Virus record (IMG/VR): IMGVR_UViG_3300045988_076157
Coordinates: 1-52,063 of that record
Reading direction: 5' to 3' (one strand)
DNA length: 52,063 nucleotides
Source: a virus
Shown here: positions 5,623-49,388 of the stretch, piece after piece
How positions within the stretch are numbered: the stretch's first letter is position 1
Layout of the letters: every line of letters starts with the position of its first letter
Program-made: the position numbers and the translations under genes
Notes under the pieces: generated by a model
Databases searched by the model: none
Told to the model about the DNA's origin: nothing
The model's input: only the letters and a program-made list of their open reading frames with translations

Positions 5623-6096
5623 TTATTTTAGCGGGGACATACCGCCGTCTGCGAGCTCAAAATATTGACCAATGAGTTCATGAGGAAGATATTGAAGGGT
5701 GATCTTTCCCCCAGAGGATTCACCCATGCGCTGACACAGGTACAGCTTGTTGTCTTCTGGATCGGTGTAATACAATCCATAAACGTATTCCATGCCCCTG
5801 GCTGCTGTGATTGGGTCATCTTTGGTTCCTGCATGTTCTACCTCGATAATCGTAAACAAAGCAGGAGTTACATCGGGGGACCAACTTTCTTGGGAAGTGT
5901 GGGATGTAACGACCTTATAGAGCCGCTTCGTTTTGGGGTAGTATACCCGATCATCTACCTTGTATTTCACCCCATCTGCACTCCAAGTAGGATACAGCAT
6001 GGGTGCTTTAGCTGCTTGCAGATCTGTCAGAAATCCAGCTGCTATGTCCATACTTGCACGAATTGCTTTTGCTTGTTCAAGAATGTCAGTTCTCAT
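5623..6096 (-). CDS. Tail-associated protein with a CBM5/12-like carbohydrate-binding motif (tentative)
   Basis: RBS GAGGAGG. YPTWSADGVKYKVDDRVYYPKTKRLYKVVTSHTSQESWSPD fits the W..Y..GD.V.Y.G..Y...H.S...W.P pattern. Confidence 0.5.
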   Translation of the reverse strand: MRTDILEQAKAIRASMDIAAGFLTDLQAAKAPMLYPTWSADGVKYKVDDRVYYPKTKRLYKVVTSHTSQESWSPDVTPALFTIIEVEHAGTKDDPITAARGMEYVYGLYYTDPEDNKLYLCQRMGESSGGKITLQYLPHELIGQYFELADGGMSPLK

Positions 6097-6334
6097 TTGA
6101 TTCCTCCTCTGTTTCCACCCCTAAAGTGTTCAGCGCAGCCCTGTATTGAGCGATCTCTTCCTGGGCGGTCAGGACTTCTTTGCCGTCCCGGTAGAACTTA
6201 CTTTCGCTGTACGTGTCTCCAATGCCCACCGGGCGGTCATGGAGCGCCACCGCACCGGGGAAATCCCCGGCGTTGGTCTCTCGCAGAACAATGACGTTGG
6301 TCACCGCGCCGCCTGTCACGATCGCGTATCTCAT
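6086..6334 (-). CDS. Small tail-region protein ending in the motif YRAALNTLGVETEE
   Basis: RBS GGAGGTGG. The C-terminal motif is shared with the 8537-8905 product. Lies in the GC-rich cassette. Confidence 0.65.
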   Translation of the reverse strand: MRYAIVTGGAVTNVIVLRETNAGDFPGAVALHDRPVGIGDTYSESKFYRDGKEVLTAQEEIAQYRAALNTLGVETEEESNEN

Positions 6335-18811: not shown

Positions 18812-19213
18812 TCACCGTGCATGGTAACGGTAATCCAGTTGATGAATTTCACCCTCAATCTGGTAAAGGGCACCATCAAGCTGTTTTGCGAGCTCAGCAC
18901 GCATACAGCTCAATTTACTATCAATCTTGCCAATTCTGTAGGCAAGCTTCATGGGGACAGGTTTGTTCATGGCGAAGAACTTTGCCCTCTTGAGGTACAG
19001 TTCCTTGGCTTCGGAAAGAACTTCCTTGGTAAACTGGTCATCCACCTGTACGATGGACTCCTTACCACAGCAGGGGCAGGTCAGAACCGTCATTGTGATG
19101 TCCCGGCCTTTCTCATTCAGCAGAAATGTGGCATGCACAACCTTCTCGGAAATGTTGCCGGAGACCTTGACCATGGCGTGACACAAATCACACCGTGTAG
19201 CGTTTATTTTCAT
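18812..19213 (-). CDS. Zinc-ribbon protein of unknown function with its own promoter
   Basis: Contains CDLC...CPCC. Directly downstream of the consensus promoter 19257-19285. Confidence 0.65.
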   Translation of the reverse strand: MKINATRCDLCHAMVKVSGNISEKVVHATFLLNEKGRDITMTVLTCPCCGKESIVQVDDQFTKEVLSEAKELYLKRAKFFAMNKPVPMKLAYRIGKIDSKLSCMRAELAKQLDGALYQIEGEIHQLDYRYHAR

Positions 19214-19256: not shown

Positions 19257-19285
19257 ATTATACTCTTAGTTATCGAAAAAGTAAA
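19257..19285 (-). promoter_or_regulatory. Consensus phage promoter TTTACT-17-TATAAT
   Basis: Minus strand reads GGGCTTTACTTTTTCGATAACTAAGAGTATAATTGTGG. Confidence 0.6.
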
Positions 19286-19310
19286 GCCCTCCTGTGGGAA
19301 AAGGAGGGCT
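19275..19310 (-). terminator. Terminator after the ARH gene, whose T-tract merges into the next -35 element
   Basis: Stem AGCCCTCC / GGAGGGCT, followed on the minus strand by TTACTTTTT. Confidence 0.55.
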
Positions 19311-19337
19311 TTTCAGAGTTATAATTCTCTCAGAGAC

Positions 19338-20180
19338 TCAGTTATATACCAGCCACACGGCCACATGAGAAAGCTCGCCAGAAATGGACTTCTCGAGCTT
19401 CTCGAGCCACTCCGAGGGGATGGCAGGGTAACCATATAGGGCACCGGCGAGACCACCGGAGAGGGCTGCTATCGTGTCAGCGTCGCCACCGTCATTCACG
19501 GCACCGAGGATGGCCTCCCGGAAACCGCTCGTATTCTTAACCCAGTACAGGGCATTGCTCAGAGTATTTATCACGTGACCAGTAGGCTCCATGTGAGCGC
19601 AAGGGGGAATAGGACGGTCATCCAGCATGTTGTTCACTGCCTGATAATACTTGGCAATAGCTTCATCGCACACTTTATTGGTGTGGGTGAGCTTAGACTG
19701 CTCCCGTGCCAGATTGAAGTCTTTGGCAAGGCAGGGTACCAGACACCGCATCAAACCACCATTACCATAGTCCTGACGTCCGCGTTTGCGCTGTCTCTCA
19801 ATATTCCGATGACCCCAGGACTCCCACCTGTGTCCTCTGTTTCCAGAGATGGCTGCATGACAGGTACTTCCCACATCAATAGGACCAGAGTCCAGCCAGT
19901 TCTCAAAGTTCTTGGCAATCTGAGCCATACGACCACTGAAGGTCAGTCTTTCCATCATGCCTCTTGCCACACACAGCATCATCTGAGTGTCATCCGTGAC
20001 TTTACCCGGCTTGATTCCCAGCCAGCCACCACCGATGATGTCAGTCACCTGACCATACTGCTTCTTGATGGCCTTGGCGGTCATGAACTCCGTAGAGGCA
20101 CCCATAGCGTCACCGATAGCAAACCCAAACAGGGCACCCATTATCTTGTCAACTCTCTTCTCATTCATGCTCATACTCAA
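19338..20180 (-). CDS. ADP-ribosylglycohydrolase (ARH/DraG family)
   Basis: N-terminal GALFGFAIGDAMGASTEF and C-terminal GGDADTIAALSGGLAGALYGYPAIPSEW are family signatures. TTG start with RBS GGAGGG. Confidence 0.9.
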   Translation of the reverse strand: MSMSMNEKRVDKIMGALFGFAIGDAMGASTEFMTAKAIKKQYGQVTDIIGGGWLGIKPGKVTDDTQMMLCVARGMMERLTFSGRMAQIAKNFENWLDSGPIDVGSTCHAAISGNRGHRWESWGHRNIERQRKRGRQDYGNGGLMRCLVPCLAKDFNLAREQSKLTHTNKVCDEAIAKYYQAVNNMLDDRPIPPCAHMEPTGHVINTLSNALYWVKNTSGFREAILGAVNDGGDADTIAALSGGLAGALYGYPAIPSEWLEKLEKSISGELSHVAVWLVYN

Positions 20181-20358
20181 TACAGCTCCCTCCTACCAGC
20201 ACTTCCAGTTCTTTGACACGAAACTTACTGCACCGGGATGTGTTACCCCAGATTTCGTTGTCGTTGAATCTGTTCTTACAGTCCTTGCATATCAAGTCCT
20301 TGTTAGAGATACGCATGGTACTCTGTGCCTCAGACTCTATACGTTTTTTCATGCTCAT
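20161..20358 (-). CDS. Small Cys-containing protein (65 aa) leading the ARH cassette
   Basis: Start trimmed to the ATG at 20358 (RBS AGGAGG 7 nt upstream). Overlaps the ARH start by 20 nt. Confidence 0.5.
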   Translation of the reverse strand: MSMKKRIESEAQSTMRISNKDLICKDCKNRFNDNEIWGNTSRCSKFRVKELEVLVGGSCIEYEHE

Positions 20359-20411
20359 AGTACAGCCTCCTACATAACAGATTAGACAGGTCTCTTCCAC
20401 CCGTCAACCCT

Positions 20412-20440
20412 ATTATAACTCCGTTCCTTGAAAAAGTAAA
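20412..20440 (-). promoter_or_regulatory. Consensus phage promoter TTTACT-17-TATAAT
   Basis: Minus strand reads GTACTTTACTTTTTCAAGGAACGGAGTTATAATAGGG. Sits immediately after the MuF-ART stop. Confidence 0.6.
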
Positions 20441-20448
20441 GTACTATT

Positions 20449-22047
20449 TTACAATTCTGGCAAAATTTCCATGAACACACGGATTATAGAGCTTCTGTGG
20501 CCGTCGGATTCCTCAATTTTGTTGATGCGCACTCTCGTACCCGCGTTGAGTAGTGTTTCACCCTCGCCAGTACCGAATGTAGAAATGGACATTATGGAGG
20601 AAGCTTGTGTGCCCTTGGGAGCGTAGAAAACAACCTCGACGTCCCCTCCAAACCCCTTATTCCAATCGGAAGATGTGCTCGTAAAGCCTGTATAAGTTCC
20701 AATAGTTCCCTGGAACATGTCATTCAGAGCCTGAGTAGACATGTTCTCCAGCTTAGTCATGTTCTCAAAGAAGTCACCGTCCATAAAGCCCGCCAAGTCT
20801 CCGAAGTTGGTACCTCTACGCAGTACCAAATCCTTCTCCAGAGAAGCTTTCTTCAGTGCAGATTGACACCGCTGTATATCGCCAGTGTACCAGTCACCAT
20901 ATTTATTGTCAGCAGCCTTTTTGCCCTCCCTTGCAGCGGTACGCAACCAACCATTCATCTTTGTATAGTCACTTCCTGTGTATTTTTTCAAGGAGGTCTT
21001 TTCTGCATCGGTAAAGTTCTCAAAGGCCGACTCTTCCATTTCCAGCATTCCTGACGTAGTTTGACGTTCAAACAGACTTATCCATTCCTTAGAGGAAGGA
21101 ATTTTCTGTACGTTGGTACCGGACTGTACATTGTTCTTGACTTCGGAGGCGATACCTCCCATACTCTCAATCCACTTATCCAAGGACGGGTCAGCTTTAC
21201 CCTCAACCCAGTCAGCTAACTGGTCGGCAATTTCAGTCATACTCTGCGGAATGTATGCCTCAAAGGTACACATGCCGTTAGGGTGGTCAAGAGGGAGACT
21301 GTCTTTAGGAAAGTGTTTACCATCTCGCTCCATACAGACTTCACAAGTACGATTGCCACCAGCAGACAGCCAAATGTAATCCTCAACGAAGGGATTGTTC
21401 TTGGTAGTCCGTACAAAAGCCTGTTGATAGGCGTGAGACACCATCGTACGAGCTAACCGCTGTGCATTGTAGTCTACCTTCTTGGCCGCGCCGGGGTACA
21501 CCTTAGACCAGTCCCAGTCTTTTCTTGCTTCAGGATTTAGATACTTCTCTAAATCCTTGGCTATATCATAGGCGCTCTTGTTCTCTGCTATGCCTTGTGC
21601 TATGATTGTATTTATGTTATACTGAGTCTTCATATGAGTTTTCCAAATGGCACGACTCAAACTCCACTTGCCCTCATAGAGTTGACCGGTGGATACCATT
21701 TTTACAATATCCGCTGGTACAAACCCATAAGCTCCTTGAATACCAAGACCCAGTTTGTTTACAAAGTTAGCATTATCGTCTACAACAGCTTGAGCTGCTG
21801 CTTTCATGTTACTCTTGATTTCTCCATTGAGGGACATCTCTGCTTTCTTTAGTTCTTTGTTGATTTCCTTTTGGAGATCCTCAAGGTATTGTTTGTAAAG
21901 CGGAGAAGAGGGTGTCTTAGGCAGATTCTTAGCTTTCTTAGCAACAGCCTTAGAAGCGTTTTTGTAGATGTCTACAATATGTTTCTGCTGTTGTTGAGTC
22001 AGCTTAACTCTCTCCTGTTCTGCTATATTCAAGCTGAATTTTGCCAT
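20449..22047 (-). CDS. Minor head protein (Phage_Mu_F / SPP1 gp7-like) fused to a C-terminal ADP-ribosyltransferase toxin domain
   Basis: MuF motif ...NRTCEVCMERDGKHFPKDSLPLDHPNGMCTFEAYIP. C-terminal R-S-E ART triad: YTGSDYTKMNGWLR, LVLRRG, GFTSTS and GEGETLL (ExE). Confidence 0.9.
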   Translation of the reverse strand: MAKFSLNIAEQERVKLTQQQQKHIVDIYKNASKAVAKKAKNLPKTPSSPLYKQYLEDLQKEINKELKKAEMSLNGEIKSNMKAAAQAVVDDNANFVNKLGLGIQGAYGFVPADIVKMVSTGQLYEGKWSLSRAIWKTHMKTQYNINTIIAQGIAENKSAYDIAKDLEKYLNPEARKDWDWSKVYPGAAKKVDYNAQRLARTMVSHAYQQAFVRTTKNNPFVEDYIWLSAGGNRTCEVCMERDGKHFPKDSLPLDHPNGMCTFEAYIPQSMTEIADQLADWVEGKADPSLDKWIESMGGIASEVKNNVQSGTNVQKIPSSKEWISLFERQTTSGMLEMEESAFENFTDAEKTSLKKYTGSDYTKMNGWLRTAAREGKKAADNKYGDWYTGDIQRCQSALKKASLEKDLVLRRGTNFGDLAGFMDGDFFENMTKLENMSTQALNDMFQGTIGTYTGFTSTSSDWNKGFGGDVEVVFYAPKGTQASSIMSISTFGTGEGETLLNAGTRVRINKIEESDGHRSSIIRVFMEILPEL

Positions 22048-22063
22048 AAGACACCCTCCTCAA

Positions 22064-23257
22064 TCACTTGGTCCCTTTTACCAGGAACGCTTCGGGATAC
22101 GTTTTCTGTACTTCCTTCAAGTATGCATCTGCATTGGCCTTAACGCTGAATGCGCCAAGTTGAATTCTGTAGATAGTGTTGCTCGTGACAGGCTTCACCA
22201 TTTCCTTGAAGGCGACGCCCAGGTAGTTACAGATACCCTTGGCAATGGTCTCACCGATGAGCTCGGTATTGTTAATGATCCACTGTGCCACTTCTGGCTC
22301 ATCATGGAAATCAACCTCAACATACGCCGTAGGAGCTGCGGGGGTCTTCACCTCAAAGAGGTTCGGATTGGCCTTGATGTTCTCGCTCTTGCCAGGGGTG
22401 AGAGGAGCTAGCACATCAAAGATGGCTTTGGCTGCTTTGTAACCCTCGCTGCTCTTGTCCATCTTGTAACAGAAGAGCCGGGTACCACTGGTTTTACCGT
22501 TGAAAGCGTTGGTATGGATAGGAACATGCAGATTTGCCTTAAAAGCATCGGAGGCTTTACAACGATTTGCCATAGTGTCATACTGACCGACCATGACCTT
22601 TACGCCACTCCGCTCCAGTGCTGTTTTGCAGGCCGCTGCAATCTTACCACACTGTACGTCCTCTGTCGTGTTTCCCACAGCGTAGGTATTGCGCCGCTGG
22701 TCAGAGGGGGACAAATACACTCTCTTTTCCATAGATTCCTCCCCTTCATAAGGTGGGTGGAAAATAGCCCATGTTCCGCTGGTGGGCATATTCCGCTTTT
22801 TATAACCAATGCCCTCAAAAGCACCGGTTCCGGCCGTGGACAACTTGGCTTTCTCAACTGTAGAGAAAACCATATTGTTACCCTCAAGCGTGATGAAGGT
22901 CGTTCCGCTGAACTTTTCATAGATGAAGAACACATGCTGATACATCCAGCGGTTTTCCTTCTTGTTGTACTCACAGTAGAAAGCAATGTCGCCTTTCTGA
23001 GCTTTGCTGTTGTCCTTAAGACGCCAGCCTTTAGCAGTGAGCCATTCACCGAGGGCACGACACCAAGCGGGATTGGAACACCCATCTAATAGATAGGGCT
23101 TTCCACTCAATCGATCAGCATACCATACGGTATACCCACAGTATGCTGCTCCGATAGCATTCCAGTACTTGTTTACTGTAGTGTTGTTTCCAGAACCAGT
23201 TTCTTGTTCACCTGCCAGCTTCTCTACAGGAGCCAGCATTTGAGATACAGTCTTCAT
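22064..23257 (-). CDS. Endolysin: CHAP-like peptidase + Amidase_3 (N-acetylmuramoyl-L-alanine amidase) + SPOR domain
   Basis: CHAP signatures YCGYTVWY, QHVFFIY and LEGNN. Amidase_3 block ...LHVPIHTNAFNG...VEVDFHD. C-terminal IYRIQLGAFSVKANADAYLKEV matches the SPOR pattern. Confidence 0.85.
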   Translation of the reverse strand: MKTVSQMLAPVEKLAGEQETGSGNNTTVNKYWNAIGAAYCGYTVWYADRLSGKPYLLDGCSNPAWCRALGEWLTAKGWRLKDNSKAQKGDIAFYCEYNKKENRWMYQHVFFIYEKFSGTTFITLEGNNMVFSTVEKAKLSTAGTGAFEGIGYKKRNMPTSGTWAIFHPPYEGEESMEKRVYLSPSDQRRNTYAVGNTTEDVQCGKIAAACKTALERSGVKVMVGQYDTMANRCKASDAFKANLHVPIHTNAFNGKTSGTRLFCYKMDKSSEGYKAAKAIFDVLAPLTPGKSENIKANPNLFEVKTPAAPTAYVEVDFHDEPEVAQWIINNTELIGETIAKGICNYLGVAFKEMVKPVTSNTIYRIQLGAFSVKANADAYLKEVQKTYPEAFLVKGTK

Positions 23258-23280
23258 ACTGTATCACCTCCTTATTGGAG

Positions 23281-23499
23281 TCAGGAATTGGGAGTTTCTT
23301 CATTACTGTCAACAGCATCCTGAATCTTCTGGCTCTGAGTGCCGAAGTAGAATGCGATGATAACAGCATAGATCGTCATGAAGTCCTGGCTGATCTTGCC
23401 CACAGTAGACATGTAGGCAAAGACACCAGTCAGCACAACAGTCACGATACTCTTCACCGAGACCAAATTCGCCAAACGTTTCTTCATCAGTTCGTTCAT
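23281..23499 (-). CDS. Holin-like protein (two TM segments)
   Basis: 72 aa, RBS AAGGAGG, immediately upstream of the endolysin. Confidence 0.6.
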   Translation of the reverse strand: MNELMKKRLANLVSVKSIVTVVLTGVFAYMSTVGKISQDFMTIYAVIIAFYFGTQSQKIQDAVDSNEETPNS

Positions 23500-23501
23500 A
23501 G

Positions 23502-23726
23502 TTAATCCTCCTTAGACTTTATTTTTATGCCAAACAACAGAGCTAATTCTGCTGTCCAAGCCGCAAACCAACCCACAATCAGAGTATCAGGCACAACATG
23601 ATCAAAAGACGAGATCACAAGTACAGCAATACAAAACCAGGTCAAATTTATGACCGAAATTATGGTGAATTTAGTCCTGGTTTTGAGCTTGCGTTTTTTC
23701 TCCACTCTGGATCCCTTGGTCTCCAT
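23502..23726 (-). CDS. Second holin/antiholin-like membrane protein (two TM segments)
   Basis: Basic N-terminus then two TM segments. Start uncertain (ATG at 23726 with GAGGGTG upstream, or TTG at 23750). Overlaps the portal 3' end. Confidence 0.5.
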   Translation of the reverse strand: METKGSRVEKKRKLKTRTKFTIISVINLTWFCIAVLVISSFDHVVPDTLIVGWFAAWTAELALLFGIKIKSKED

Positions 23727-25272
23727 TCTCTTCACCCTCATTTTCTTCAAGATTCTGCTGATTCTGCTTATCCTCCATCCCTTCGCTAGTCAATTCCATA
23801 AAGGCATCCTCCAAAATCTGGCGCTCAAGGGCAATCTGCCGCAGCTCCTCATCAGCCTCTTCATCTGTCAGGTTGCGCCATTTCTTCATGTAGGCTTTCT
23901 TGGACATCGTCTGAGCATTGACTTCAGCCAAATCCACTTGTTTCTCCTCGGACTCATCTTCAGGGAGAGGATACTGATTGTCTACTCGGATGGTATAGTC
24001 CACATCAGGTAACTTCTCTTCAATGTACTTGGCACCGGCTTCAGGATACAGACGAGCACCCTCGATAATACACCGAACCATCAGCTCCAGTGCAGGACGC
24101 CACACCAGCATCTTGTCTTCGCAGCGGACAATCAGGTCCCAATAGATGGCCTTGAGAGTCTTACCGGAAGATACAACACCCCTCAGAGCCTCAGGACTGA
24201 CATTGGGGACGGCACACTGTTCATGAGTCATGCTCTTGATACGGTCAAGGGTCGTACCCAGAGCCGCGCTGTAGCTCATCGGAGAATCCAGAACGCCTAC
24301 CTGTGCTGAACGGTCTGTGGCCTGATTCTGGTCGGATGCGATATCCCAGAAAGCACCCGCAGAAATACTCAAGCCCTTAGTACTCTCAGGGGAGGCATCC
24401 ACCGTGTACCGGATAGGATTCATACCCTTGCGCTCTGCATCCATATCAGCAGCAGCCAACTTACTGTACCACGCCTCATACTCACTGAGCAGCTCAACCT
24501 CGGACATACCAATAAGGTCGCCAGTCAGACCGTCGTTGACGATAACGCAAGCGGGGATGAACTCAAACAGAGTGGCAGTCGGCTCAGACAGAGTCTCAAT
24601 GAGTTCGCCCATGCCATTGTAGATTTCCTCAGAGTACCAGCACACACCGTTCTCCAGCCAGTACTTCTTCTTGTAAATACGCTGGTCTTGCTTGGACTTC
24701 TCGTCGTTGATGCCATAGAAAGCTACGATTTTGGTGAGCTTGTTGTAATCCTGAGGGTCAACGTCATACACAAACTCAAGGCTCGGAAGGAAACTGACCT
24801 GCATACCCTCCTCGGTGTTGACATTGAACATCAGGGCTACCCGCTTACCGATGAAGCAGTCCTTTGCAGCCTGAACCAGTGCGGGACGGAAGTTGTTTTC
24901 CTTCAGCACACTATCCACCAGCTCCTGATAGATGGTGGCTGCTTCCTTGGCCTTTTCTCTCTGCTCTTTGGTATCACCCAAATCCACATCTACAAACAGG
25001 TCAGGGGACTTGGAGAACAGAAAACGTGCTTCTTTGTCTATCAAGGCTCTTGTGATTTTGTACCGCAGGTCTGCCGGGGTGTAGTCCTTTGTACTCTCAA
25101 CAGGGTACTGGACACCTTTCTCGTAGGTATCATACAGCTGTATGATTTTATACATATCCCGCAGAACGGCGGAACCATACATGCCCTCCAGCTCGGCCTT
25201 GATAAGCGAGGAGGGGACATTCAACAGGCGGGACACCTCTATTGAGACATCCCTGTTTACGCTTGCTGCCAT
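23671..25272 (-). CDS. Portal protein (SPP1 gp6-like)
   Basis: 533 aa, follows TerL with start/stop overlap. Family-typical N-terminus ...LRDMYKIIQLYDTYEKG...LRYKITRALIDKEARFLF. Acidic C-terminal tail. Confidence 0.9.
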   Translation of the reverse strand: MAASVNRDVSIEVSRLLNVPSSLIKAELEGMYGSAVLRDMYKIIQLYDTYEKGVQYPVESTKDYTPADLRYKITRALIDKEARFLFSKSPDLFVDVDLGDTKEQREKAKEAATIYQELVDSVLKENNFRPALVQAAKDCFIGKRVALMFNVNTEEGMQVSFLPSLEFVYDVDPQDYNKLTKIVAFYGINDEKSKQDQRIYKKKYWLENGVCWYSEEIYNGMGELIETLSEPTATLFEFIPACVIVNDGLTGDLIGMSEVELLSEYEAWYSKLAAADMDAERKGMNPIRYTVDASPESTKGLSISAGAFWDIASDQNQATDRSAQVGVLDSPMSYSAALGTTLDRIKSMTHEQCAVPNVSPEALRGVVSSGKTLKAIYWDLIVRCEDKMLVWRPALELMVRCIIEGARLYPEAGAKYIEEKLPDVDYTIRVDNQYPLPEDESEEKQVDLAEVNAQTMSKKAYMKKWRNLTDEEADEELRQIALERQILEDAFMELTSEGMEDKQNQQNLEENEGEENGDQGIQSGEKTQAQNQD

Positions 25273-26623: not shown

Positions 26624-27208
26624 TCAGAAACTCTCTCCAGAGAGCAGTCTTTTCAGCAGCTGTTCCTTGACTTCTTCAACTGTACCTCGATACTGCGCTT
26701 CACGTTGCTCCATGTCTTTCAGAGCTCTCATAAGACGTCTATTTTCCGCAGCCAAAACCATGTTCTGTTCTTTGAGAGACACAACCAGCTCCTTCTTCAG
26801 AAAACTTGCCTTATTCTGTTGAAGTTGTTCATACCCAGAAAGAACCAGCTCAATGGCCTCAGCCCTATACCGAGATTCAGAATTGATATAGTAACCGTGT
26901 TGCCGTATGGAGGGGAGAACCTCGTCAAATACCCAAGCCTCAAATTTTGTGGCTTCGGGTAGCTTGCTGCGAATAATTAGACGATATACGTCCCCTTCCT
27001 GGATGTACCGGAGATTCTGTACACCGCCTTCAGTCTTGGTAGGGATTAGTTCAGTTTCTCTGCGAATGTGACGCTTAAGAGCTTGTTTTACGTCAGAATA
27101 CCCGAGAGCACGAGCTACATCAATCCCACACATCAAGATTTTGCCATCACGCTCCGCAAAATGAACTTCTCCAAAGAGAGAATTCGTACGAGAGATAATT
27201 GTGTTCAT
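26624..27208 (-). CDS. Bro-N domain protein (antirepressor-like) with a C-terminal coiled coil
   Basis: FGEVHFAERDGKILMCGIDVARALGY...GGVQNLRYIQEGDVYRLIIRSKLPEATKFEAWVFDEVLPSIRQHGYY matches the Bro-N pattern. Start trimmed to the ATG at 27208. Confidence 0.85.
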   Translation of the reverse strand: MNTIISRTNSLFGEVHFAERDGKILMCGIDVARALGYSDVKQALKRHIRRETELIPTKTEGGVQNLRYIQEGDVYRLIIRSKLPEATKFEAWVFDEVLPSIRQHGYYINSESRYRAEAIELVLSGYEQLQQNKASFLKKELVVSLKEQNMVLAAENRRLMRALKDMEQREAQYRGTVEEVKEQLLKRLLSGESF

Positions 27209-27231
27209 GTAAGTTTTCCTTTCATCTATAT

Positions 27232-27261
27232 AAAGGGGGGGTTGAAACGACCCCCCCCTTT
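27232..27261 (-). terminator. G7/C8 hairpin terminator between terS and the Bro-N gene
   Basis: Minus strand reads GGGGGGGG-TCGTTTCAA-CCCCCCC followed by TTTATAT. Confidence 0.6.
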
Positions 27262-27285
27262 CCAAGTACAAGGGAGGAATTCCTC

Positions 27286-28240: not shown

Positions 28241-28703
28241 TTTCATCTTAAAATTAGGCGGAATTCCTTGGTTTTCGCCTAATTTCATCTTAAAATTAGG
28301 CGGAATTTTACAAGTTACAAGTTGTTGGTATTTTCCAATACTTTACTCCGTGAAGTAAAGCAAAATTAGGCGAAATCACCCCAAGCAAGTCGTGGTTTCA
28401 AACAAGTTTGCATCTGGCCTAATTTTACACCTTCCTACTTCATTATAGAGAAAAATTTATAAAATAATAGAATAGAGAGAGTATAAAAATGCATATATAA
28501 TAATATCGCCGGAAAATTAGGCGGCCGCAAACCCCACATATTACACGATTTTCACGCCTAATTTACCTATTTTCACTTTTCCCCGTGAAGTAAAAGCCAA
28601 GGATTTTCCGATTTTTCACCCCTTAAAAGCCCGATTTCCGCCTAATTTTCTCCATAATGCGCCTATTTTTCATTTCCCCGTCGAGTAAAAGCCATGATTT
28701 TAC
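28241..28703. repeat. Iteron-like array: at least 7 exact and 2 degenerate AAATTAGGCG sites in both orientations, plus 25-bp and ~36-bp longer repeats
   Basis: Plus orientation at 28251, 28293, 28363 and 28514. Reverse orientation at 28276, 28555 and 28639. Degenerate copies at 28416 and 28660. 25-bp direct repeat at 28241-28265 and 28283-28307. CCGT(G/C)(A/G)AGTAAA(A)G occurs three times (28348, 28583, 28678). Confidence 0.85.
28441..28510. other. Very AT-rich tract in the centre of the iteron array (candidate DNA-unwinding element)
   Basis: CATTATAGAGAAAAATTTATAAAATAATAGAATAGAGAGAGTATAAAAATGCATATATAATAATAT. Confidence 0.45.
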
Positions 28704-32540: not shown

Positions 32541-32750
32541 GTGACCCGTGGGGAATATATGAGACAGGCTCGGAAACGTGCAGGTCTGACCATTAAACAG
32601 CTTGGTCGTTTATCAGGAGTGGGCTACTCTACAGTCAGTGAGTTGGAAAGAGGTATAAGAAATGACTGTAGAATATCCACCCTGGAGTTACTCGCAGACA
32701 CATTGAGAATCAGCATAGATGAATACATAGGACATACAAGGAGGAAATGA
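32541..32750 (+). CDS. XRE-family helix-turn-helix protein (Cro/CI-type)
   Basis: RKRAGLTIKQLGRLSGVGYSTVSELERG is a canonical HTH_3 pattern. Confidence 0.8.
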   Translation: MTRGEYMRQARKRAGLTIKQLGRLSGVGYSTVSELERGIRNDCRISTLELLADTLRISIDEYIGHTRRK

Positions 32751-32752
32751 TA

Positions 32753-33121
32753 ATGATTAACCGGTTTACTTCCCAGATTCATGCTCTGATGAAAGAGCTG
32801 TGCGTTCCCATGAGAAACAAAGGGTATGACTACATCTTCAAAGCAGTAGAGATCCTGCTTGAGAATCCCAAAATTAGACTGTCTCTTACCAAGGAAGGTG
32901 GAGTGTATGAGCAAGTGGCTACCTACTATGGAGTACGAAACAATACCGTGGAACGCTGTATCCGCACATGCGTAGAAGCTGTGTATCTTGTTGCACCTAC
33001 TGAAACAATTCAGAAAGTGATTGGAGGAAACTTCAACGATTATACCGGCAAAATTACAAACGGTGACTTCTTGTATGCGTTGCGAAATGAGGTGCTGATC
33101 AGAGGAGGTGGTGCTTTGTGA
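32753..33121 (+). CDS. Spo0A C-terminal (effector, DNA-binding) domain-only protein
   Basis: CVPMRNKGYDYIFKAVEILL...LTKEGGVYEQVATYYGVRNNTVERCIRTCVEAVY...GKITNGDFLYAL parallels Spo0A GVPAHIKGYLYLREAI...[32 protein letters not shown]...KPTNSEFIA. There is no receiver domain. Confidence 0.85.
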   Translation: MINRFTSQIHALMKELCVPMRNKGYDYIFKAVEILLENPKIRLSLTKEGGVYEQVATYYGVRNNTVERCIRTCVEAVYLVAPTETIQKVIGGNFNDYTGKITNGDFLYALRNEVLIRGGGAL

Positions 33122-34766: not shown

Positions 34767-35363
34767 ATGGATTATCAATTTTCTGTCAAAACAATGTCTG
34801 AGTCCCAGCGCATGTTGGCTCTCACAAAAGCCCTTATCATGAGTGGAGTCAGTTTGGATGTGTTTCCTTTGGCGTGGCTCAACGGCACCGATTTCTATCG
34901 TGCTCCCGCATCTAAGCACTTTCATGCTGCCTATTCTGGAGGCCTGTTTGAGCACAGCCTGAATGTAACAGTGAAGTTACTTCAGTTCACCGAAGCCGGT
35001 CTGTGTTCTCCCTGGGGTAGACCCGAAAGCCCCATCATTATTGGTATGCTTCATGACACCACAAAGATCAACCGTTACAAAGCGTACCAGGACATGAACA
35101 CAGTCACTCAGGAAATGGAGACCTTCTACCAGGACAATCCTGAGTATGAGAATCTCGGCGGTCACGGTAACGATTCTGTTCTCAAGCTCAAGAAGGTCAT
35201 GGATCTCATTGAAGAAGAGGAACTGTGTATCAGGTACCACATGGGCGCTTATGAGACAGAGGATTGGGACGGCTTTGATAAAGCTATTCGGAAGTTCCCA
35301 AATGTGCTCTTCACCCACACAGCTGACATGTATGCTTCTAAGTGCATGGAGGTGACTCCATGA
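34767..35363 (+). CDS. HD-domain phosphohydrolase
   Basis: HFHAAYSGGLFEHSL ... MLHDTTK ... GHGNDS fits the HD-superfamily metal-binding pattern. ATG at 34767 after GGAGG. Confidence 0.7.
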   Translation: MDYQFSVKTMSESQRMLALTKALIMSGVSLDVFPLAWLNGTDFYRAPASKHFHAAYSGGLFEHSLNVTVKLLQFTEAGLCSPWGRPESPIIIGMLHDTTKINRYKAYQDMNTVTQEMETFYQDNPEYENLGGHGNDSVLKLKKVMDLIEEEELCIRYHMGAYETEDWDGFDKAIRKFPNVLFTHTADMYASKCMEVTP

Positions 35364-36376
35364 GGAACAAGCCTAAGGATGTTCCATACTGTGGTGTGAG
35401 AAAGGACAGAATTCTCAAAGGAGAGCCTGTGGTAGATCCTGAGATACTCCGGTATCTGTATCAGTTTATTGTAAGACGATACAAGATCCATCTGCGGAAA
35501 GATGTTCAGGGTTTGCCTTCTCCTTGGACAAAGGATCCTGTATTACAAGAATACAGGTTCACCAACGTGAGACGAGAACATGACAGAGAAACCAAGTGGC
35601 TGATCAAGAACATTACAAGCAACCCTGATCTGTCCTATCCAAACAAACTCTTGAACTGTATCTTGTTCCGGTTATACAACAAACATGAGACTTCTGAACT
35701 GATCTCTCAACCTATTCCTTTTGATAAGTATAAGTCTTCAGGGGGGTGGGATCCTGAGTGGTATCGTGCTCTGTTTGAAGCTGCCCAAGCAGAAGATTCT
35801 CACAGGGTGTTCTTCACTGGAGCATTCATTACTGGAGGACTGAAGCGAGCACTGAAATGGTATCTACCCAAGGATGATCCTAAAAACAGCATGGAAATGA
35901 GAATGTTGTGGTTTATGAAAGTCCTCATAGACGATAATGTTGTCAGCAAGATCAAGTCTGCAGTTAACCAAAAAGAGGTGTTCAAAACTCTATGCAGCTA
36001 TGACGGACTTGGGGAGCTTCTGTCTTATCAGATCTTTGTAGATATGACTTACATAGAAGAGTTTCCTTTCAGCGAAAATGAGTTTACTGTAGCAGGTCCT
36101 GGTTGTAAGATAGGACTGAGATTTCTGTTTAAAGACACAGATGGTATGACCCCAGAAGAATGTTTGTTCTGGTTGAGAGATAACCTTGAGTCTATCTTCA
36201 AAAACAAGACCAAGGGGAAATTCAGCTGCGAAGCTCTCTTTACAGATTTGCCTGAGTATGATCGCTGTTTTAATGTCATGAGCTTGGAGAACTGTTTCTG
36301 TGAGTTGAGTAAATATGTGAGAGCTACTAAAGGAACAGGCAGACCCAGAAAGAGATACAAGGAGGTACATGAATGA
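35360..36376 (+). CDS. Helical DNA base-hypermodification-type protein (resembles the 5-hm-pyrimidine DNA kinase helical domain / aGPT-pyrophosphorylase group, tentative)
   Basis: The string PWTKDPVLQEYRFTNVRREHDRETKWL and the later GLGELLSYQIFVDMTY...FTVAGPGCKIGLRFLF recall that group. No P-loop. ATGA overlap with the HD gene. Confidence 0.4.
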   Translation: MRNKPKDVPYCGVRKDRILKGEPVVDPEILRYLYQFIVRRYKIHLRKDVQGLPSPWTKDPVLQEYRFTNVRREHDRETKWLIKNITSNPDLSYPNKLLNCILFRLYNKHETSELISQPIPFDKYKSSGGWDPEWYRALFEAAQAEDSHRVFFTGAFITGGLKRALKWYLPKDDPKNSMEMRMLWFMKVLIDDNVVSKIKSAVNQKEVFKTLCSYDGLGELLSYQIFVDMTYIEEFPFSENEFTVAGPGCKIGLRFLFKDTDGMTPEECLFWLRDNLESIFKNKTKGKFSCEALFTDLPEYDRCFNVMSLENCFCELSKYVRATKGTGRPRKRYKEVHE

Positions 36377-36963
36377 AAACAAGAAATGAGATGAGACGAG
36401 ACAGAACCTTAGCTTGGTTGGTAGTGATTTGCATAATTTTGGTTGCGATTTCAGGAGTAAGTTTGGCGTGCTCTCTTTGGGAAAGCCATAAGAACAATCA
36501 GCCTTTAGATAGAGAGTCTAAGACTGTGTATTCTGAAATAGGAACTCCTCTACGAATTGTCCCCCCTCCCAAGATCATTCTCAGCCCTGATACATCTACT
36601 CCTCAAGCTCCAGAATACGATTATGACTATGTATGTCGTGTAGTTATGGCTGAGACCGGCGGAGAATATAATGAAGATCTGACTCTGGCCGTCTGTCAGG
36701 CTATTATGAATGCGGCTACAGAAAACGATTGGACTCCTGAGGAAGTCTGTATCAATTACAAGTACACAGGACCTCATGACTATGTGAGTGATTTCATACA
36801 AGATATCTGTGACAGAATCTTCCTCTATGGAGAAGTCTATGAGGACTCAGGGAATGCCCAAGTTTTCTACAACCCTTCATATGGACATAGCAGCTATCAT
36901 GAGAGTCAAATCTTTGTGTGTGAGATTGGTGGAGTTCGTTTCTTTGAAAGGGTGGCTGTATGA
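36373..36963 (+). CDS. Membrane-anchored SleB/CwlJ-family cell wall hydrolase (Hydrolase_2)
   Basis: N-terminal TM LAWLVVICIILVAISGVSLA. Catalytic-domain pattern VCRVVMAETGGE...LAVCQAIMNA...QVFYNPS...EIGGVRFF parallels SleB (ARLVYSEARGE...VAAVVLNR...FYNP...IGNHVF). Confidence 0.7.
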   Translation: MKTRNEMRRDRTLAWLVVICIILVAISGVSLACSLWESHKNNQPLDRESKTVYSEIGTPLRIVPPPKIILSPDTSTPQAPEYDYDYVCRVVMAETGGEYNEDLTLAVCQAIMNAATENDWTPEEVCINYKYTGPHDYVSDFIQDICDRIFLYGEVYEDSGNAQVFYNPSYGHSSYHESQIFVCEIGGVRFFERVAV

Positions 36964-37781
36964 TACCTGTATTTGTTCCATCCTACAAGCGTCCCAAGGC
37001 TACCTTACTTGTTCGTTCACTGAACTGGGACTTTCCTCTGTATGTATTTGTACGCAAAGAGGAACTTGAGGACTATTCTTGGATAAAGAAACGTCCTAAT
37101 ACCAAGCTGATAACTTTGAAAAATGTACACGACATCGGTGAGACTCGAGCAGCAATGTTACGATATGCTTCAGTACATGGCATCCCTCGGGTGTTCATGT
37201 TGGATGATGACGTTACACGATTAGATCTGTCCGTATGGGACGAGGAGCGCCGGGTAGTGCGTGCCTCTGGTACGGTACGAGGGTGTCCTGAAAACTGGCA
37301 GGTCGTTCTTGCAGAGTGGGAAAGCTTGTGGGGAGATGAAGCCCTATTTGGTGCTTCTTACAGACCATTCAGTTGGAGCATAAAGAAAAATGCACTCAAT
37401 ACCAATCGGCGTGTTCAACTTCAACAAGCTGTAGGTGTGAATGTGGAGCGCATTGTAGCTGAGGGACTCCGATACTACAGCAATAAAGATGTAGGCAATG
37501 AAGACCTGTTCTTACAACTAGAATGCTATCAACAGGGACTTGAGTGTGTACAGACTCCGATGATACAGTATGATTGTCCCGCTATGGGTGCTGGGAAAGG
37601 AGGCTGTAATGCTTCCGAACTTGGCTCAATTGCTGAGAAGCAACATCGACGCGTGAGGAAATTCCTGAAGGCTTGTGGTAATGACCCCGCAGTCCGTGTA
37701 TCAACTACTCGAAGTGGAGTAGAAAGCATAAAGTTCAACTGGAAAGTGATTGACAAATTGATGGGAGGATCCTATGAGTAA
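36960..37781 (+). CDS. GT-A-like glycosyltransferase (TET/JBP-associated TAGT-like, tentative)
   Basis: IPVFVPSYKRP N-terminus and MLDDDV (DxD) motif. Embedded among nucleotide-modification genes. Confidence 0.45.
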   Translation: MIPVFVPSYKRPKATLLVRSLNWDFPLYVFVRKEELEDYSWIKKRPNTKLITLKNVHDIGETRAAMLRYASVHGIPRVFMLDDDVTRLDLSVWDEERRVVRASGTVRGCPENWQVVLAEWESLWGDEALFGASYRPFSWSIKKNALNTNRRVQLQQAVGVNVERIVAEGLRYYSNKDVGNEDLFLQLECYQQGLECVQTPMIQYDCPAMGAGKGGCNASELGSIAEKQHRRVRKFLKACGNDPAVRVSTTRSGVESIKFNWKVIDKLMGGSYE

Positions 37782-43456: not shown

Positions 43457-43885
43457 ATGATCGAAGTCAAGAAGGGCGAAACTGTTATCGTCAAGGGCTT
43501 TACCGGTATCAAGCTGGGCGTGTTCGAGGTTTCCAAGGCGGACAAGAAGACTGTTACCGTCATGAAGAGAAACGGTGACGAGATGATCTTTGACCGCAAG
43601 ACTGGCAAGCAGATCAACGTGGAGGAAGGCAAGGAGAAGTATGCCAACTCCCTCATGGAGGATGATGGCAGCTATGTTGCTCCCTCTGCCTCTAAGAAGT
43701 CTAAGAAAGCCTCCAAGCCTGCGACCAAGAAGGCCAAGCCCGAGCCTGAAGACGATGACGAAGATGAGGACGAAGATGAGGAAGAGGAAGTCAAGCCTGT
43801 GAAGAAGGCAAAGAAGTCTGCCAAGAAGACCAAGAAGGTCACTGAGGAAGACGACGATGACGACTTTGAGGACATGGATGACTGA
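43457..43885 (+). CDS. Small-domain protein with alternating Lys-rich and Asp/Glu-rich C-terminal tail (ends DDDDDFEDMDD)
   Basis: RBS AGGAGGA. The tail block KKAKPEPEDDDEDEDEDEE is shared with the 46067-46738 product. Confidence 0.75.
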   Translation: MIEVKKGETVIVKGFTGIKLGVFEVSKADKKTVTVMKRNGDEMIFDRKTGKQINVEEGKEKYANSLMEDDGSYVAPSASKKSKKASKPATKKAKPEPEDDDEDEDEDEEEEVKPVKKAKKSAKKTKKVTEEDDDDDFEDMDD

Positions 43886-46066: not shown

Positions 46067-46738
46067 ATGAGCAGAAGAATGAAAGTCGATATGACCAACG
46101 TGGAGAGTTACACCCGTTGTCCCGAGGGTCAGTTCCCTGCCAAGCTGGTCAAACTGGAAGAATGCACCATTCAGGGTTCCGGCGACGACGGTCTGAAGGC
46201 AAAGTTTGAAGTCACTGGTGGTTCTGGCAAGGGCAGCAACGTCTTTGAGACCTTCTCTCTGGGTGAGAAAGCTCTGTGGAAGCTGAAGATGATGCTGGAG
46301 GCCATGGGCATGAAGGCCACCGGCAAGATGACTTTGGATCTGGACAAGCTGGAAGGCAAGTCCGTCGGTATCGAAGTCGTTCATGATGAGTTCAATGGTC
46401 GGAAAACTGCAAAGATCGCCCAGTACCTCAAGCTGAGTGAGCTGGAAGACACTGAGGCTGATGAAGACGACGAAGATGAGGATGATGACGATGAGGATGA
46501 GGAGCCGGTAAAGAAGCCTGCAAAGAAAGCTCCTGCCAAGAAGTCCAAAAAGCAGCCTGAGCCGGATGAGGACGAGGATGAGGATGATGACGAAGATGAG
46601 GACGAAGACGAGGAAAAGTCTGCCCCCAAGAAGTCTTCTAAGAAAGCTCCTGCAAAGGCTGCCAAAAAGTCTTCCAAGAAGGCAAAGCCTGAACCCGAGG
46701 ACGATGATGAGGACGACTGGGAGGACGATGAGGACTGA
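46067..46738 (+). CDS. DUF669-family (SSB-like) protein with a long alternating acidic/basic tail ending DDWEDDED
   Basis: N-terminal domain CPEGQFPAKLVKLEE...KAKFEVTGG...FSLGEKALWKLKMMLEAMG fits DUF669. The tail has three acidic and two Lys-rich blocks. Confidence 0.75.
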   Translation: MSRRMKVDMTNVESYTRCPEGQFPAKLVKLEECTIQGSGDDGLKAKFEVTGGSGKGSNVFETFSLGEKALWKLKMMLEAMGMKATGKMTLDLDKLEGKSVGIEVVHDEFNGRKTAKIAQYLKLSELEDTEADEDDEDEDDDDEDEEPVKKPAKKAPAKKSKKQPEPDEDEDEDDDEDEDEDEEKSAPKKSSKKAPAKAAKKSSKKAKPEPEDDDEDDWEDDED

Positions 46739-48322: not shown

Positions 48323-48658
48323 ATGGACCAGAAAATGGAAATTCATCAGCATCTCTGTGAGAAGATGCATGACCTGTATGAGCGTAAAAACGCTGACTAT
48401 GGGGATAGCTTTGCTCAGCTCCGCAAGCGATATCCAAACTTCGTGTGTATGCGGCTGTTTGACAAGTTAAACCGACTTGACACCATCATCCAGCCGGGGT
48501 ATGAGTGTAAGGTGTCTGACGAGAAGATTGAGGACACCCTGATGGATATTGCCAACTATGCGATCATGGAGCTGACTGAACGCATCGCTGACAGAAATCC
48601 CCCTATATCTGCAAGCAACCTGTATGCAACTTCTATTGATGCAAAGGAGGTACACTAA
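48323..48658 (+). CDS. DUF1599 (nucleotide modification associated domain 1, MazG-related) protein
   Basis: KNADYGDSF...MRLFDKLNRLDTI...EDTLMDIANYAIM fits the DUF1599 pattern. Confidence 0.7.
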   Translation: MDQKMEIHQHLCEKMHDLYERKNADYGDSFAQLRKRYPNFVCMRLFDKLNRLDTIIQPGYECKVSDEKIEDTLMDIANYAIMELTERIADRNPPISASNLYATSIDAKEVH

Positions 48659-48659
48659 C

Positions 48660-49388
48660 ATGTCTGTATTCATTTTCAATGCACAAACGGTAAATGATGC
48701 TTGGGAGCAGGCATTCGGCGCTCTGGCGATCCAGGCTTCTGAGGGCTTTGCTGACACTTCCCGTGATGGCGGAGTGGTTGGTGAGATCACTGATGCTGTT
48801 TTCTGTATCAAGGATCCTACTCGCAACATTGTGACCAGTCCGATCCGAAAGATGCCCTTGCGCTATGCTGTCGGAGAGTTGGCTTGGTATCTGTCCGGTT
48901 CCAACAAGGTCTCTGATATCAGTCGGTTTGCTAAGAAGTGGGTTGACATCTCTGATGATGGTGAAACCAATAACTCTGCTTATGGGTATCGTATCTTCAC
49001 CAAGTTTGGGTTTGATCAGTGGGAGTATGTGAAGTCTCTCCTGATGAAAGACCCCAATTCTCGTCAGGCAGTCATTCACATCAAGAATGCTGATGATACA
49101 CCCACCAAGGACACTCCCTGCACGGTGTATCTCCAGTTCTTCATCCGCGATGGCAAGTTGAATCTGTCGGTACATATGCGATCCAACGATATTTGGATGG
49201 GTGTGCCTTATGACATGTTCAGCTTTTGCTTCCTGCAGATGAAGATGGCTATGGAGTTAGGTGTTGAGATCGGTGAATACCACCACTACGCTGGGTCTCT
49301 GCACATGTATGCTCGAGATTGGGAGACTGCTCAGAAAACTGTGGGTAGTTGTTCCTGCAAGAAGCTCAAGCGTGAAGGAGTGAACTGA
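48660..49388 (+). CDS. ThyA-fold deoxypyrimidylate C5-(hydroxy)methylase, T4 gp42-like, Asp at the base-specificity position
   Basis: Catalytic Cys154 in TPCTVYLQF. MRSNDIWMGVPYDMF aligns ungapped with E. coli [15 protein letters not shown], so N177 corresponds to Asp185 (GAC at 49212-49214). NSAYGY, DPNSRQ and GSLHMY strings resemble T4 dCMP hydroxymethylase. Confidence 0.8.
   Translation: MSVFIFNAQTVNDAWEQAFGALAIQASEGFADTSRDGGVVGEITDAVFCIKDPTRNIVTSPIRKMPLRYAVGELAWYLSGSNKVSDISRFAKKWVDISDDGETNNSAYGYRIFTKFGFDQWEYVKSLLMKDPNSRQAVIHIKNADDTPTKDTPCTVYLQFFIRDGKLNLSVHMRSNDIWMGVPYDMFSFCFLQMKMAMELGVEIGEYHHYAGSLHMYARDWETAQKTVGSCSCKKLKREGVN

Follow-up and report, generated by a model that had tools for sequence, protein, structure and literature searches.

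A probable dual-immunity ADP-ribosyltransferase toxin module on the minor-capsid gene of an apparently non-integrating gut Clostridia phage

The virus record IMGVR_UViG_3300045988_076157 of IMG/VR was analyzed over its entire length of 52,063 nucleotides, which is referred to here as the window. The first 42 nt of the window are identical to the last 42 nt (1-42 and 52022-52063), indicating that the record is a complete, circularly assembled phage genome with a length of about 52,021 bp. At the 3' end of its minor-capsid gene, this phage, which is apparently non-integrating and associated with gut Clostridia, probably carries a polymorphic toxin module with dual immunity. The module comprises an ADP-ribosyltransferase (ART) domain fused to the C terminus of a MuF protein, followed by a gene for a 65-amino-acid protein with four cysteines, termed here Cys65, and a gene for an ADP-ribosylglycohydrolase (ARH). 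The comparison with related loci puts the small protein, not the hydrolase, as the constant partner of the ART.

Judged by its profile matches, the 532-aa product of the toxin gene is an SPP1-gp7/MuF minor-capsid protein with a C-terminal ART of the C3/VIP2 type. The N-terminal region matched the head morphogenesis family phrog_1657 with an E value of 1.3e-60, and matches above the cutoffs were also obtained for the Phage_Mu_F family PF04233 (33.6 bits; cutoff 29.6) and for the phageSPP1_gp7 family TIGR01641 (45.4 bits; cutoff 39.65). The protein is named "SPP1 gp7 family putative phage head morphogenesis protein" in IMG. The C-terminal domain was recognized by the ADPrib_exo_Tox family PF03496 (E 1.4e-26, 93.5 bits; cutoff 23.4), and its nearest solved relatives are Lmo0066 (8za7_B, E 1.7e-08), C3larvin, C3, CDTa, and Vip2. 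A further match, to phrog_802 (T4 Alt), is marginal (E 3e-4) and lies over the linker region. The ART motifs are YTGSDYTKMNGWLR (residues 356-369), LRRG (residues 409-412; nt 20812-20823), FTSTS (residues 455-459; nt 20671-20685), and GEGE (residues 494-497; nt 20557-20568), and the catalytic residues R411, S457-T458-S459, and E495-G-E497 are intact. In HMMER alignments the last three motifs are in register with the Arg, S-T-S, and ExE/QxE motifs of Lmo0066 and C3larvin, and the catalytic motifs are invariant across the ART clade. An earlier reading of the window, made from the sequence only, had proposed a MuF/gp7-ART fusion of the polymorphic MuF-toxin type with a complete R-S-E signature; both the fusion type and the positions of the motifs were confirmed by these matches and alignments and by the swapped C termini found in relatives (see below).

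The ExE motif is that of the arginine-specific ART variant. Together with the Arg-type hydrolase encoded nearby it predicts arginine as the acceptor residue, and an ExE-type ART next to a hydrolase of the Arg-ADP-ribose type makes up a chemically coherent pair. By analogy with SPP1 gp7, which is a portal-associated minor capsid protein, the fusion protein would be packaged into the virion and ejected from it.

The hydrolase gene at the end of the cassette matched PF03747 (E 7e-51, 174 bits), and the structural relatives of its product include DraG (2woc, E 2.6e-44), Tri1 (6dre, E 5e-30), and Lmo0067 (8za7_A, E 4.7e-19). The metal and active-site motifs GDAxGxxxEF (here GDAMGASTEF), TDDT, DVG (IDVGS), and GGDADT are all kept and match those of DraG in the alignment, down to the Asp that entry 2woe carries in mutated form. 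The scores stayed below the NCBIfam equivalog cutoffs of both DraG (TIGR02662, 194.6 against 337) and Tri1 (NF041672, 130.7 against 490), and by these scores ARH is a relative of both proteins and an orthologue of neither. With 278 aa, as compared to 366 aa for Tri1, it is devoid of an N-terminal extension and aligns to DraG from residue 11 onward (DraG residue 13). A gene of this type, linked to the ART, is thus present where the sequence-only reading had placed it (19338-20180), except for the start codon: TTG at 20180 was rejected in favor of ATG at 20174, which creates a 14-nt overlap with the stop of Cys65 that is also seen in relatives and gives the 278-aa form found in public gene calls. 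Through this overlap ARH is predicted to be translationally coupled to Cys65.

Related loci were collected by scans of viral contigs seeded with the MuF-ART protein, ARH, the small protein, and a profile of the ART domain, yielding dozens of head modules (individual loci are designated by L and a number). Linkage was counted in 37 unique ART loci and in the 26 loci of the search with the ART profile, which did not select for the small protein; the presence of ARH was judged within flanks of 3.5-4 kb. In the ART-seeded set a member of the Cys65 family was located directly downstream of the toxin in 26/26 loci, whereas ARH was present in 15/26. The corresponding figures for all unique loci were 36/37 and 22/37, and in L025, the one exception, a remote four-Cys ORF (open reading frame) of 83 aa takes the Cys65 position. 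Those ARTs without ARH that were checked keep the RRG, S-T-S (or SAS), and ExE motifs. Since loci without ARH retain intact catalytic motifs as well as Cys65, ARH is best seen as an optional second antidote and not as the sole one. The genetic linkage of ART and ARH and the fitting chemistry speak for the antidote role given to ARH by the earlier reading, but not for the exclusiveness implied there.

The limits of the module emerge from L003, the MuF N-terminal region of which is 94% identical. Collinearity with this locus holds, at 86.6% nucleotide identity, as far as nt 21155; it resumes at nt 19332, and exactly nt 21154-19333 (1,822 bp) are absent from L003. Its MuF protein ends in ...ESMGGVANGSK*, followed by the same terminator and promoter. 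Because L003 is collinear on both sides and lacks everything between, the ART domain and the cassette form one 1.82-kb module that is gained or lost as a unit. In the head modules of relatives the ART domain, the small protein, and ARH were found all or none, and Cys65 and ARH were never seen in relatives whose MuF protein lacks this ART domain. A short MuF protein is also encoded in L006, L008-L012, and L015, and other C termini correspond to a HEFGH peptidase-like domain (L005), an unassigned domain (L007), and another R-S-E-like domain (L004). The same MuF N terminus thus bears differing C-terminal domains, which is the signature of polymorphic toxins.

The small protein also follows the toxin in its divergence. 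Spearman correlations of pairwise identities with those of the ART domain were 0.69 for Cys65, 0.28 for the toxin's own MuF domain, 0.20 for ARH, and 0.13 for the scaffold protein. In the comparison with L001, the backbone has about 95% nucleotide identity, with values of 65% for the Cys65 gene and 74-83% for the ART domain.

Cys65 is annotated in IMG as "hypothetical protein". No Pfam match was obtained at E <= 0.01, and consequently none to the Pfam immunity families, nor was there any NCBIfam match above noise; a comparison of its sequence profile with the PDB gave non-significant zinc-ribbon-like matches only (e.g., Brf1 and HypA). A single-sequence search retrieved one near-identical cluster only, and a profile was needed for wider reach: the exhaustive profile search returned 319 representative clusters, nearly all of 55-95 aa. 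The four cysteines (C24, C27, C43, and C59) are invariant in the family alignment, the consensus of which reads RIESEA..RITNxDLVCKDC..DDS..GNTSxC..KP..VLxGGxC..Y. Some family members occur away from any ART. In P0090, a natural fusion found in 4 contigs from different samples, residues 2-68 make up the Cys domain and residues 80-351 an ARH; its gene lies next to DUF3987, HTH (helix-turn-helix), and GIY-YIG genes and with no ART nearby. The orphan homologue P0029 stands alone on bacterial contigs of 77-83 kb, its neighbours being a tRNA gene and a relic lysis cassette. Polymorphic toxin systems typically include immunity genes in orphan and fused form. As the constant partner of the ART that co-diverges with it and has orphan and fused copies, Cys65 is the best candidate for primary immunity; it is probably a zinc-binding, non-enzymatic, inhibitor-type immunity protein, with ARH as the optional enzymatic one.

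Two of these family members merit a closer description. In L027 (ENA contig k141_189464, approximately positions 5700-6300), the P0029 gene is located just downstream of the tRNA gene and by a relic holin/amidase pair, flanked by direct repeats of about 36 nt that hold a TGgTATAAT promoter-like box, with no ART or ARH present. P0059, an 84-aa four-Cys protein of the L025 type, is found in L030/L031 (3575-6255) at 1.6 kb from an ARH gene of the other strand; the surroundings are those of a bacterial chromosome and include no ART.

The cassette has a promoter of its own. The sequence-only reading had reported a consensus promoter between the toxin and the small gene, and its position and conservation across relatives indicate that the element is real and conserved, although its hexamers, TTTACT and TATAAT with a spacing of 17 nt, match 10/12 consensus positions and so fall short of the full consensus. 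It belongs to a family of the form (G/A)CTTTACTTTT-N13-(GAG)TTATAAT, of which the genome has 8 copies, all intergenic and co-oriented with genes, as compared to about 0.9 expected; none of 100 shuffled sequences (0/100) reached 8. About 35/36 related loci have a -35/-10 pair in the interval from the toxin stop codon to the small ORF, often with an extended TGnTATAAT; the spacers following the toxin are unrelated in sequence among loci, and the position of the pair is kept. Given the strong domain E values, the 8 promoter copies against 0.9 expected, and the recurrence of the arrangement in dozens of contigs, the features of the locus are beyond chance. The Cys65 gene begins 90 nt past the toxin stop codon, with its ATG seven bases after AGGAGG. 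Behind ARH, the transcription unit is closed by the intrinsic terminator already noticed by the sequence-only reading along with the two cassette genes (19312-19283, dG -18.9 kcal/mol, z -4.84, followed by a U-run). In relatives a terminator with different stem sequences follows ARH, and in L003 it stands directly after the short MuF gene; the second promoter of the flank is likewise present in this cassette-less locus.

A sequence scan revealed no terminator-like site between the toxin stop codon and the cassette promoter. Because no terminator separates the toxin from the cassette, the latter would be transcribed by read-through as well as from its own promoter. The proposal, made by the earlier reading, that the antidote is timed differently from a late toxin was not upheld: the same class of promoter fronts replication and structural operons, including the terS-to-MuF operon of the toxin itself, so that a difference in timing cannot be inferred from the promoter.

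The region around the start of the cassette shows additional peculiarities. The start regions of Cys65 (20340-20372) and ARH (20160-20195), both on the (-) strand, are alike (GGAGGCTGTACT-ATGAGCATGAA as compared to GGGAGCTGTATTGAGT-ATGAGCATGAA), which suggests a local duplication. The gap between the post-toxin promoter and Cys65 holds extra small ORFs in L001 (7681-7968), L002, L023 (5571-5813), L054, L083, and L084; examples are a protein of about 80-95 aa (MENK..YPxVLxG..NGWIRRNVYWRDG) and a 223-aa protein in L083, and a 1-nt indel within an extra small ORF sets L001 apart from L002. By the look of these loci, the gap is a hot spot for insertions or for further immunity genes.

Information on the lifestyle and host of the phage comes from the remainder of the genome. 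No integrase or recombinase was found in any scanned ORF of the genome, which encodes its own DNA polymerase, primase, and helicase together with thymidine-hypermodification genes; by its gene content the phage is apparently virulent or non-integrating, without a temperate look. An Ant-like gene is present, which leaves room for a temperate ancestry. This anti-repressor gene (26624-27271, (-) strand; phrog_130/2899, E 3e-34) is located between terS and terL and is an odd constituent of a phage without a detected integrase or repressor. A scan of 185,579 species genomes with the ART profile produced 2 matches only, both on contigs that are short or of phage size and belong to Clostridia metagenome-assembled genomes (MAGs), one from yak colon and the other from horse faeces. 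The host lineage is apparently gut Clostridia, and the contigs apparently derive from herbivore-gut material. The genome also encodes a homologue of the C-terminal DNA-binding domain of Spo0A (PF08769, E 8.5e-20; 32747-33121, (+) strand), a hint that the host forms spores and that the phage may interfere with sporulation.

Among deposited phages, a megablast search with the 10 kb around the locus against 50,697 entries gave no match. At the protein level, MuF-ART fusions were found in C. difficile phages only, with other small ORFs downstream and no ARH, and the ARH matches were in unrelated contexts, namely in jumbo phages and Streptomyces phages. In one of the C. difficile phages, phiCDKH01 (L026, 4879-5748), small ORFs in repeated copies and an orphan fragment of an ART C terminus come after the MuF-ART gene. 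By its layout this array, which is unannotated in GenBank, is a classical orphan toxin tip with immunity genes.

Taken together, a toxin module with two layers of immunity is the likely explanation for the locus. The MuF N terminus would be built into the procapsid at the portal, as in the SPP1 gp7 family, carrying the ART into the virion. Ejected with the DNA into the next cell, the ART would ADP-ribosylate arginines of host proteins in an NAD+-dependent manner, as the intact R/S-T-S/E-x-E residues and the Arg-type hydrolase suggest. In the virion-producing cell, the ART would be neutralized by the two cassette proteins, transcribed by read-through and from the promoter right after the toxin stop codon. 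Cys65 would most likely bind and block the ART one-to-one, as a "structural" immunity protein of the Bsi/Tis1 type, and ARH would remove residual ADP-ribosyl-arginine as an enzymatic immunity protein of the BAH/Aph1 type (both types are compared below), a layer that is optional and missing in about 40% of the relatives. The extra promoter would keep immunity transcripts at or above the level of toxin transcripts and may also help to switch off the injected toxin soon after infection.

Several points weigh against this explanation. Genomes scored as devoid of ARH might carry it outside the flanks of 3.5-4 kb. Correlations of the mirror-tree kind, drawn from related phages, are no independent evidence of physical contact. 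The structural model of Cys65 is of moderate confidence (pLDDT 79) and had no Foldseek match in the PDB or BFVD; the Cys domain is also fused to the unrelated DUF1643 and DUF6508, and as such could be a generic small zinc module. Furthermore, MuF toxins have been reported almost only in temperate phages (Jamet et al. 2017), and in a phage without an integrase the classical role of these toxins in the competition of lysogens with other bacteria may not apply.

In an alternative that is considered unlikely, the ART is a switch for host takeover: once injected, it would reprogramme the host early, similar to T4 Alt, and ARH, perhaps with Cys65 as a regulator, would be its programmed eraser in a DraT/DraG-like circuit. 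Such a possibility has been raised by Jamet et al. and Ahmad et al. (PMC10083569) and would suit a phage that looks virulent, with its own replication and DNA-modification genes and no integrase, and for which lysogen competition is unlikely. Sharing its class with the replication-module promoters, the cassette promoter could fire early, and ARH is closest to a regulatory enzyme, DraG. However, the approximately 40% of relatives that lack ARH keep an active-looking ART and Cys65, showing that the eraser is inessential; the strict pairing of ART and Cys65 and the divergence hot spot fit the logic of toxin and immunity, and ARTs of the Bxa type are promiscuous and lethal without their neighbours. 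The takeover idea overlaps with the dual-immunity explanation, as immunity and timed shut-off are compatible.

It is also improbable that Cys65 serves as a zinc-ribbon chaperone or packaging adaptor for the ART, or as a regulator of the cassette, leaving ARH as the only true antidote. Effector-specific chaperones encoded beside toxins are known from type VI secretion systems (T6SS), and the four invariant cysteines, the weak, non-significant likeness to the zinc ribbons of Brf1 and HypA, and the fusion of the domain to unrelated proteins in some genomes agree with such a function. But in this case the ARH-less loci with an intact ART would have no antidote, and the orphans and the Cys-ARH fusion without an ART suit immunity and not a chaperone. 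The gene also stands directly behind the toxin, where immunity genes are canonically found (Jamet et al. 2017).

The possibility that the ART is mainly aimed at animal gut cells, being released at lysis and modifying epithelial cytoskeletal proteins like Bxa while the immunity genes protect the producer only, is very unlikely. Its closest relatives are actin- and Rho-targeting toxins (C3, CDTa, and Vip2), the related contigs are from herbivore guts (the Clostridia MAGs from yak and horse), and Bxa offers a precedent; yet the protein has no secretion or uptake signal, delivery into bacteria is suggested by its being fused to a capsid-internal protein, and no lasting benefit for a lysogen is expected from a phage that is not temperate-looking. 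Least credible of all is an ARH/Cys65 cassette that acts independently of the phage's ART as an anti-defence moron, removing ADP-ribose placed by bacterial ART-based defences: an own promoter and terminator are moron-like and lone ARH genes exist in many phages, including jumbo and Streptomyces phages, but Cys65 and ARH never occur in relatives without this ART domain, come and go with it as the 1.82-kb unit, and the PADLOC search gave zero matches to defence systems.

A wider view of the small-protein family can be offered tentatively, with considerable doubt. The four-Cys proteins could be an undescribed family of zinc-dependent ART inhibitors that provide the primary immunity for a clade of capsid-delivered ARTs. 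Free-standing copies, such as the orphan beside a tRNA gene on a bacterial chromosome and the Cys-domain::ARH fusion in a DUF3987/HTH mobile-element context, would then be defences captured by hosts or mobile elements that disarm phage-injected ART effectors. As the phage looks virulent, it would also be a case of MuF toxins acting in infection itself and not in lysogen competition.

The coordinates of the module and of its surroundings are compiled in Table 1. The genes of the structural arm are all encoded on the (-) strand in the order terL, portal, two small membrane ORFs (holin-like), lysin, MuF-ART, cassette, Zn-ribbon-like ORF, scaffold, decoration, and major capsid protein. The lysis cassette (22064-23750), made up of the two small membrane ORFs and the lysin, lies inside the head operon between the portal and MuF genes; at the same place L003 has the same lysin (94% identity), whereas L001 and L002 have a different one. 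The Zn-ribbon-like ORF was rejected as a member of the module: it precedes the scaffold gene in nearly all relatives whatever their toxin content, including toxin-less ones, and has a tandem duplicate in many. The thymidine-hypermodification set listed in the table indicates that the phage DNA probably contains modified T. Two perfect 25-nt direct repeats (TTTCATCTTAAAATTAGGCGGAATT; 28241-28265 and 28283-28307), with a spacing of 42 nt, lie where the structural and replication arms diverge and could represent an operator or origin element. In two replication-module proteins, acidic (D/E) runs that precede lysine-rich ones are encoded by imperfect repeats at 43748-43848 and 46460-46669 on the (+) strand.

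Table 1. Coordinates (positions in the window) of the toxin-immunity module, its promoters and terminator, and other genes of the phage
Feature	Coordinates	Strand	Match or remark
MuF(gp7)-ART fusion, 532 aa	20449-22047	(-)	PF04233, TIGR01641, phrog_1657, PF03496
N-terminal MuF/head-morphogenesis region, residues 9-297	21157-22023	(-)	phrog_1657
Pfam MuF core, residues 144-255	21283-21618	(-)	PF04233
ART domain, residues 340-523	20479-21030	(-)	PF03496
Candidate toxin-immunity module, 1.82 kb (ART domain, promoter, Cys65, ARH)	19333-21154	(-)	Insertion/deletion unit relative to L003
Predicted sigma-A/sigma-70-type promoter, TTTACT-17-TATAAT	20412-20440	(-)	Ahead of the candidate immunity genes
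Cys65, 65 aa	20161-20358	(-)	Ribosome-binding site AGGAGG; four-Cys family
DraG/Tri1-like ARH, 278 aa	19338-20174	(-)	PF03747
Predicted intrinsic terminator	19283-19312	(-)	11-bp stem, T-run; closes the cassette and the terS-to-MuF operon
Second predicted promoter, identical hexamer pair	19257-19285	(-)	Flank, outside the module; would drive the Zn-ribbon ORF, scaffold, decoration, and capsid genes
Zn-ribbon-like ORF, 133 aa, CxxC...CPCC	18812-19213	(-)	phrog_1315, function unassigned
CHAP/Amidase_3/SPOR lysin	22064-23257	(-)	
Portal	23671-25272	(-)	
Promoter-family copies	28093, 20442, 19287, 5621	(-)	28093 is ahead of terS and hence of the toxin's operon
Promoter-family copies	28763, 33341, 43371, 51976	(+)	Ahead of replication-module operons
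5-hmdU DNA kinase	35342-36376	(+)	PF18723, E 7e-68; thymidine-hypermodification set
TET-associated-glycosyltransferase-like	36960-37781	(+)	PF20691; thymidine-hypermodification set
Thymidylate-synthase-like	48624-49388	(+)	PF00303; thymidine-hypermodification set

The design of a MuF-ART accompanied by an ARH and a small immunity protein is already known. The sequence-only reading had overstated the novelty of the locus in this respect, since the combination has been characterized (PMC11699363) and ARH immunity was catalogued in 2012 (PMC3482391). The closest precedent is the Bxa/BAH/Bsi system (Brown et al. 2021; Alexei et al. 2024, PMC11699363), and not Tre1/Tri1 as that reading had assumed, although Tri1 is a significant relative of ARH. 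The B. stercoris prophage protein Bxa, a MuF-ART, has Arg as its acceptor residue and is toxic when expressed in E. coli; BAH, a hydrolase, neutralizes it, and so does, independently, Bsi, a small binding protein (PMC11699363). Both systems share the N-terminal MuF and a C-terminal ART that is Arg-directed in Bxa and predicted to be so here, the location in the head-morphogenesis region, the adjacent genes for an ARH and for a small protein, non-enzymatic in Bsi and probably so in Cys65, and N-terminal homologues fused to other toxins in relatives. They differ in that Bxa has 869 aa with a middle domain and is encoded by an integrated Bacteroidales prophage, whereas the protein described here has 532 aa and is encoded by a Clostridia phage that is apparently non-integrating. 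For BAH the comparison was made with ARH1, while the ARH of the present phage is closest to DraG and Tri1. Bsi (BACSTE_RS09450) has at least 92 residues and its description includes no cysteine or zinc feature, which sets it apart from Cys65 with its 65 aa and four Cys, and a conserved internal promoter, as seen here across relatives, was not reported for Bxa.

Another example of the same logic is the MuF (p)ppApp-synthetase toxin Apk2, for which the Tis1-like binding immunity protein is always present and the hydrolase variably (Ahmad et al. 2023, PMC10083569). The constant binder and variable eraser of this Apk2/Tis1/Aph1 system correspond to Cys65, which is always present, and ARH, which is present in about 60% of the loci. 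The toxic activity differs, being (p)ppApp synthesis instead of ADP-ribosylation, and all three proteins are unrelated in sequence.

Tri1 reportedly joins an active-site plug with hydrolase activity, and the Cys65::ARH fusion P0090 shows the same two-part logic. In the Tre1/Tri1 pair of the Serratia T6SS (Ting et al. 2018) an Arg-specific ART is neutralized by a DraG-like ARH, as is proposed for the present pair. It differs in its delivery by the T6SS instead of the capsid, and the ARH described here is about 90 residues shorter, with the presumed plug function residing in a separate 65-aa protein. In the survey by Zhang et al. (2012), ARH was listed as an enzymatic immunity protein of Tox-ART-RSE and Imm41 as the non-enzymatic one (PMC3482391); Cys65 differs from Imm41 in having no match to a Pfam immunity family. 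Lmo0066 and Lmo0067 of Listeria monocytogenes, an ART and an ARH in one crystal entry (PDB 8za7), both match the proteins described here, but Lmo0066 is a chromosomally encoded, free-standing 180-aa ART without MuF. T4 Alt is likewise an ART carried in the head and injected with the DNA, but has no MuF fusion and no dedicated hydrolase or immunity gene.

In a broader context, the locus shares with the polymorphic toxins of the MuF type surveyed by Zhang et al. (2012) and Jamet et al. (2017), the EFV toxin among them, a conserved MuF N terminus, variable C-terminal toxins, and a small ORF after the toxin. According to these surveys, 14% of the MuF C-terminal toxins are ARTs, a small ORF (<150 aa) follows the toxin, and packaging and injection with the DNA were proposed; MuF fusions of Alt/VIP2-type ARTs are also common in phages (PMC9503650). 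The members covered by these surveys are almost all in temperate phages, whereas no integrase was found in the present genome and a relative was found in 2/185,579 species genomes only. The MuF-ART of the C. difficile phage phiCDKH01 has 29.5% identity and is followed by different small ORFs and no ARH. The role that MuF-fused toxins play for the phage is still an open question (PMC10083569).

Because the overall design is known, the view of the field is left unchanged by this locus. It is a clean and complete example in which the 1.82-kb module has sharp boundaries, the internal promoter is conserved, and two proteins are candidates for the role of antidote. The four-Cys family is worth following as a candidate family of new, possibly zinc-dependent inhibitors of C3/VIP2-type ARTs, and its orphan and fused copies outside phages are of interest. 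Compared with what is known, the locus differs in its Clostridia host lineage, an apparently new family of small proteins, the conserved internal promoter, and the non-temperate look of the phage.

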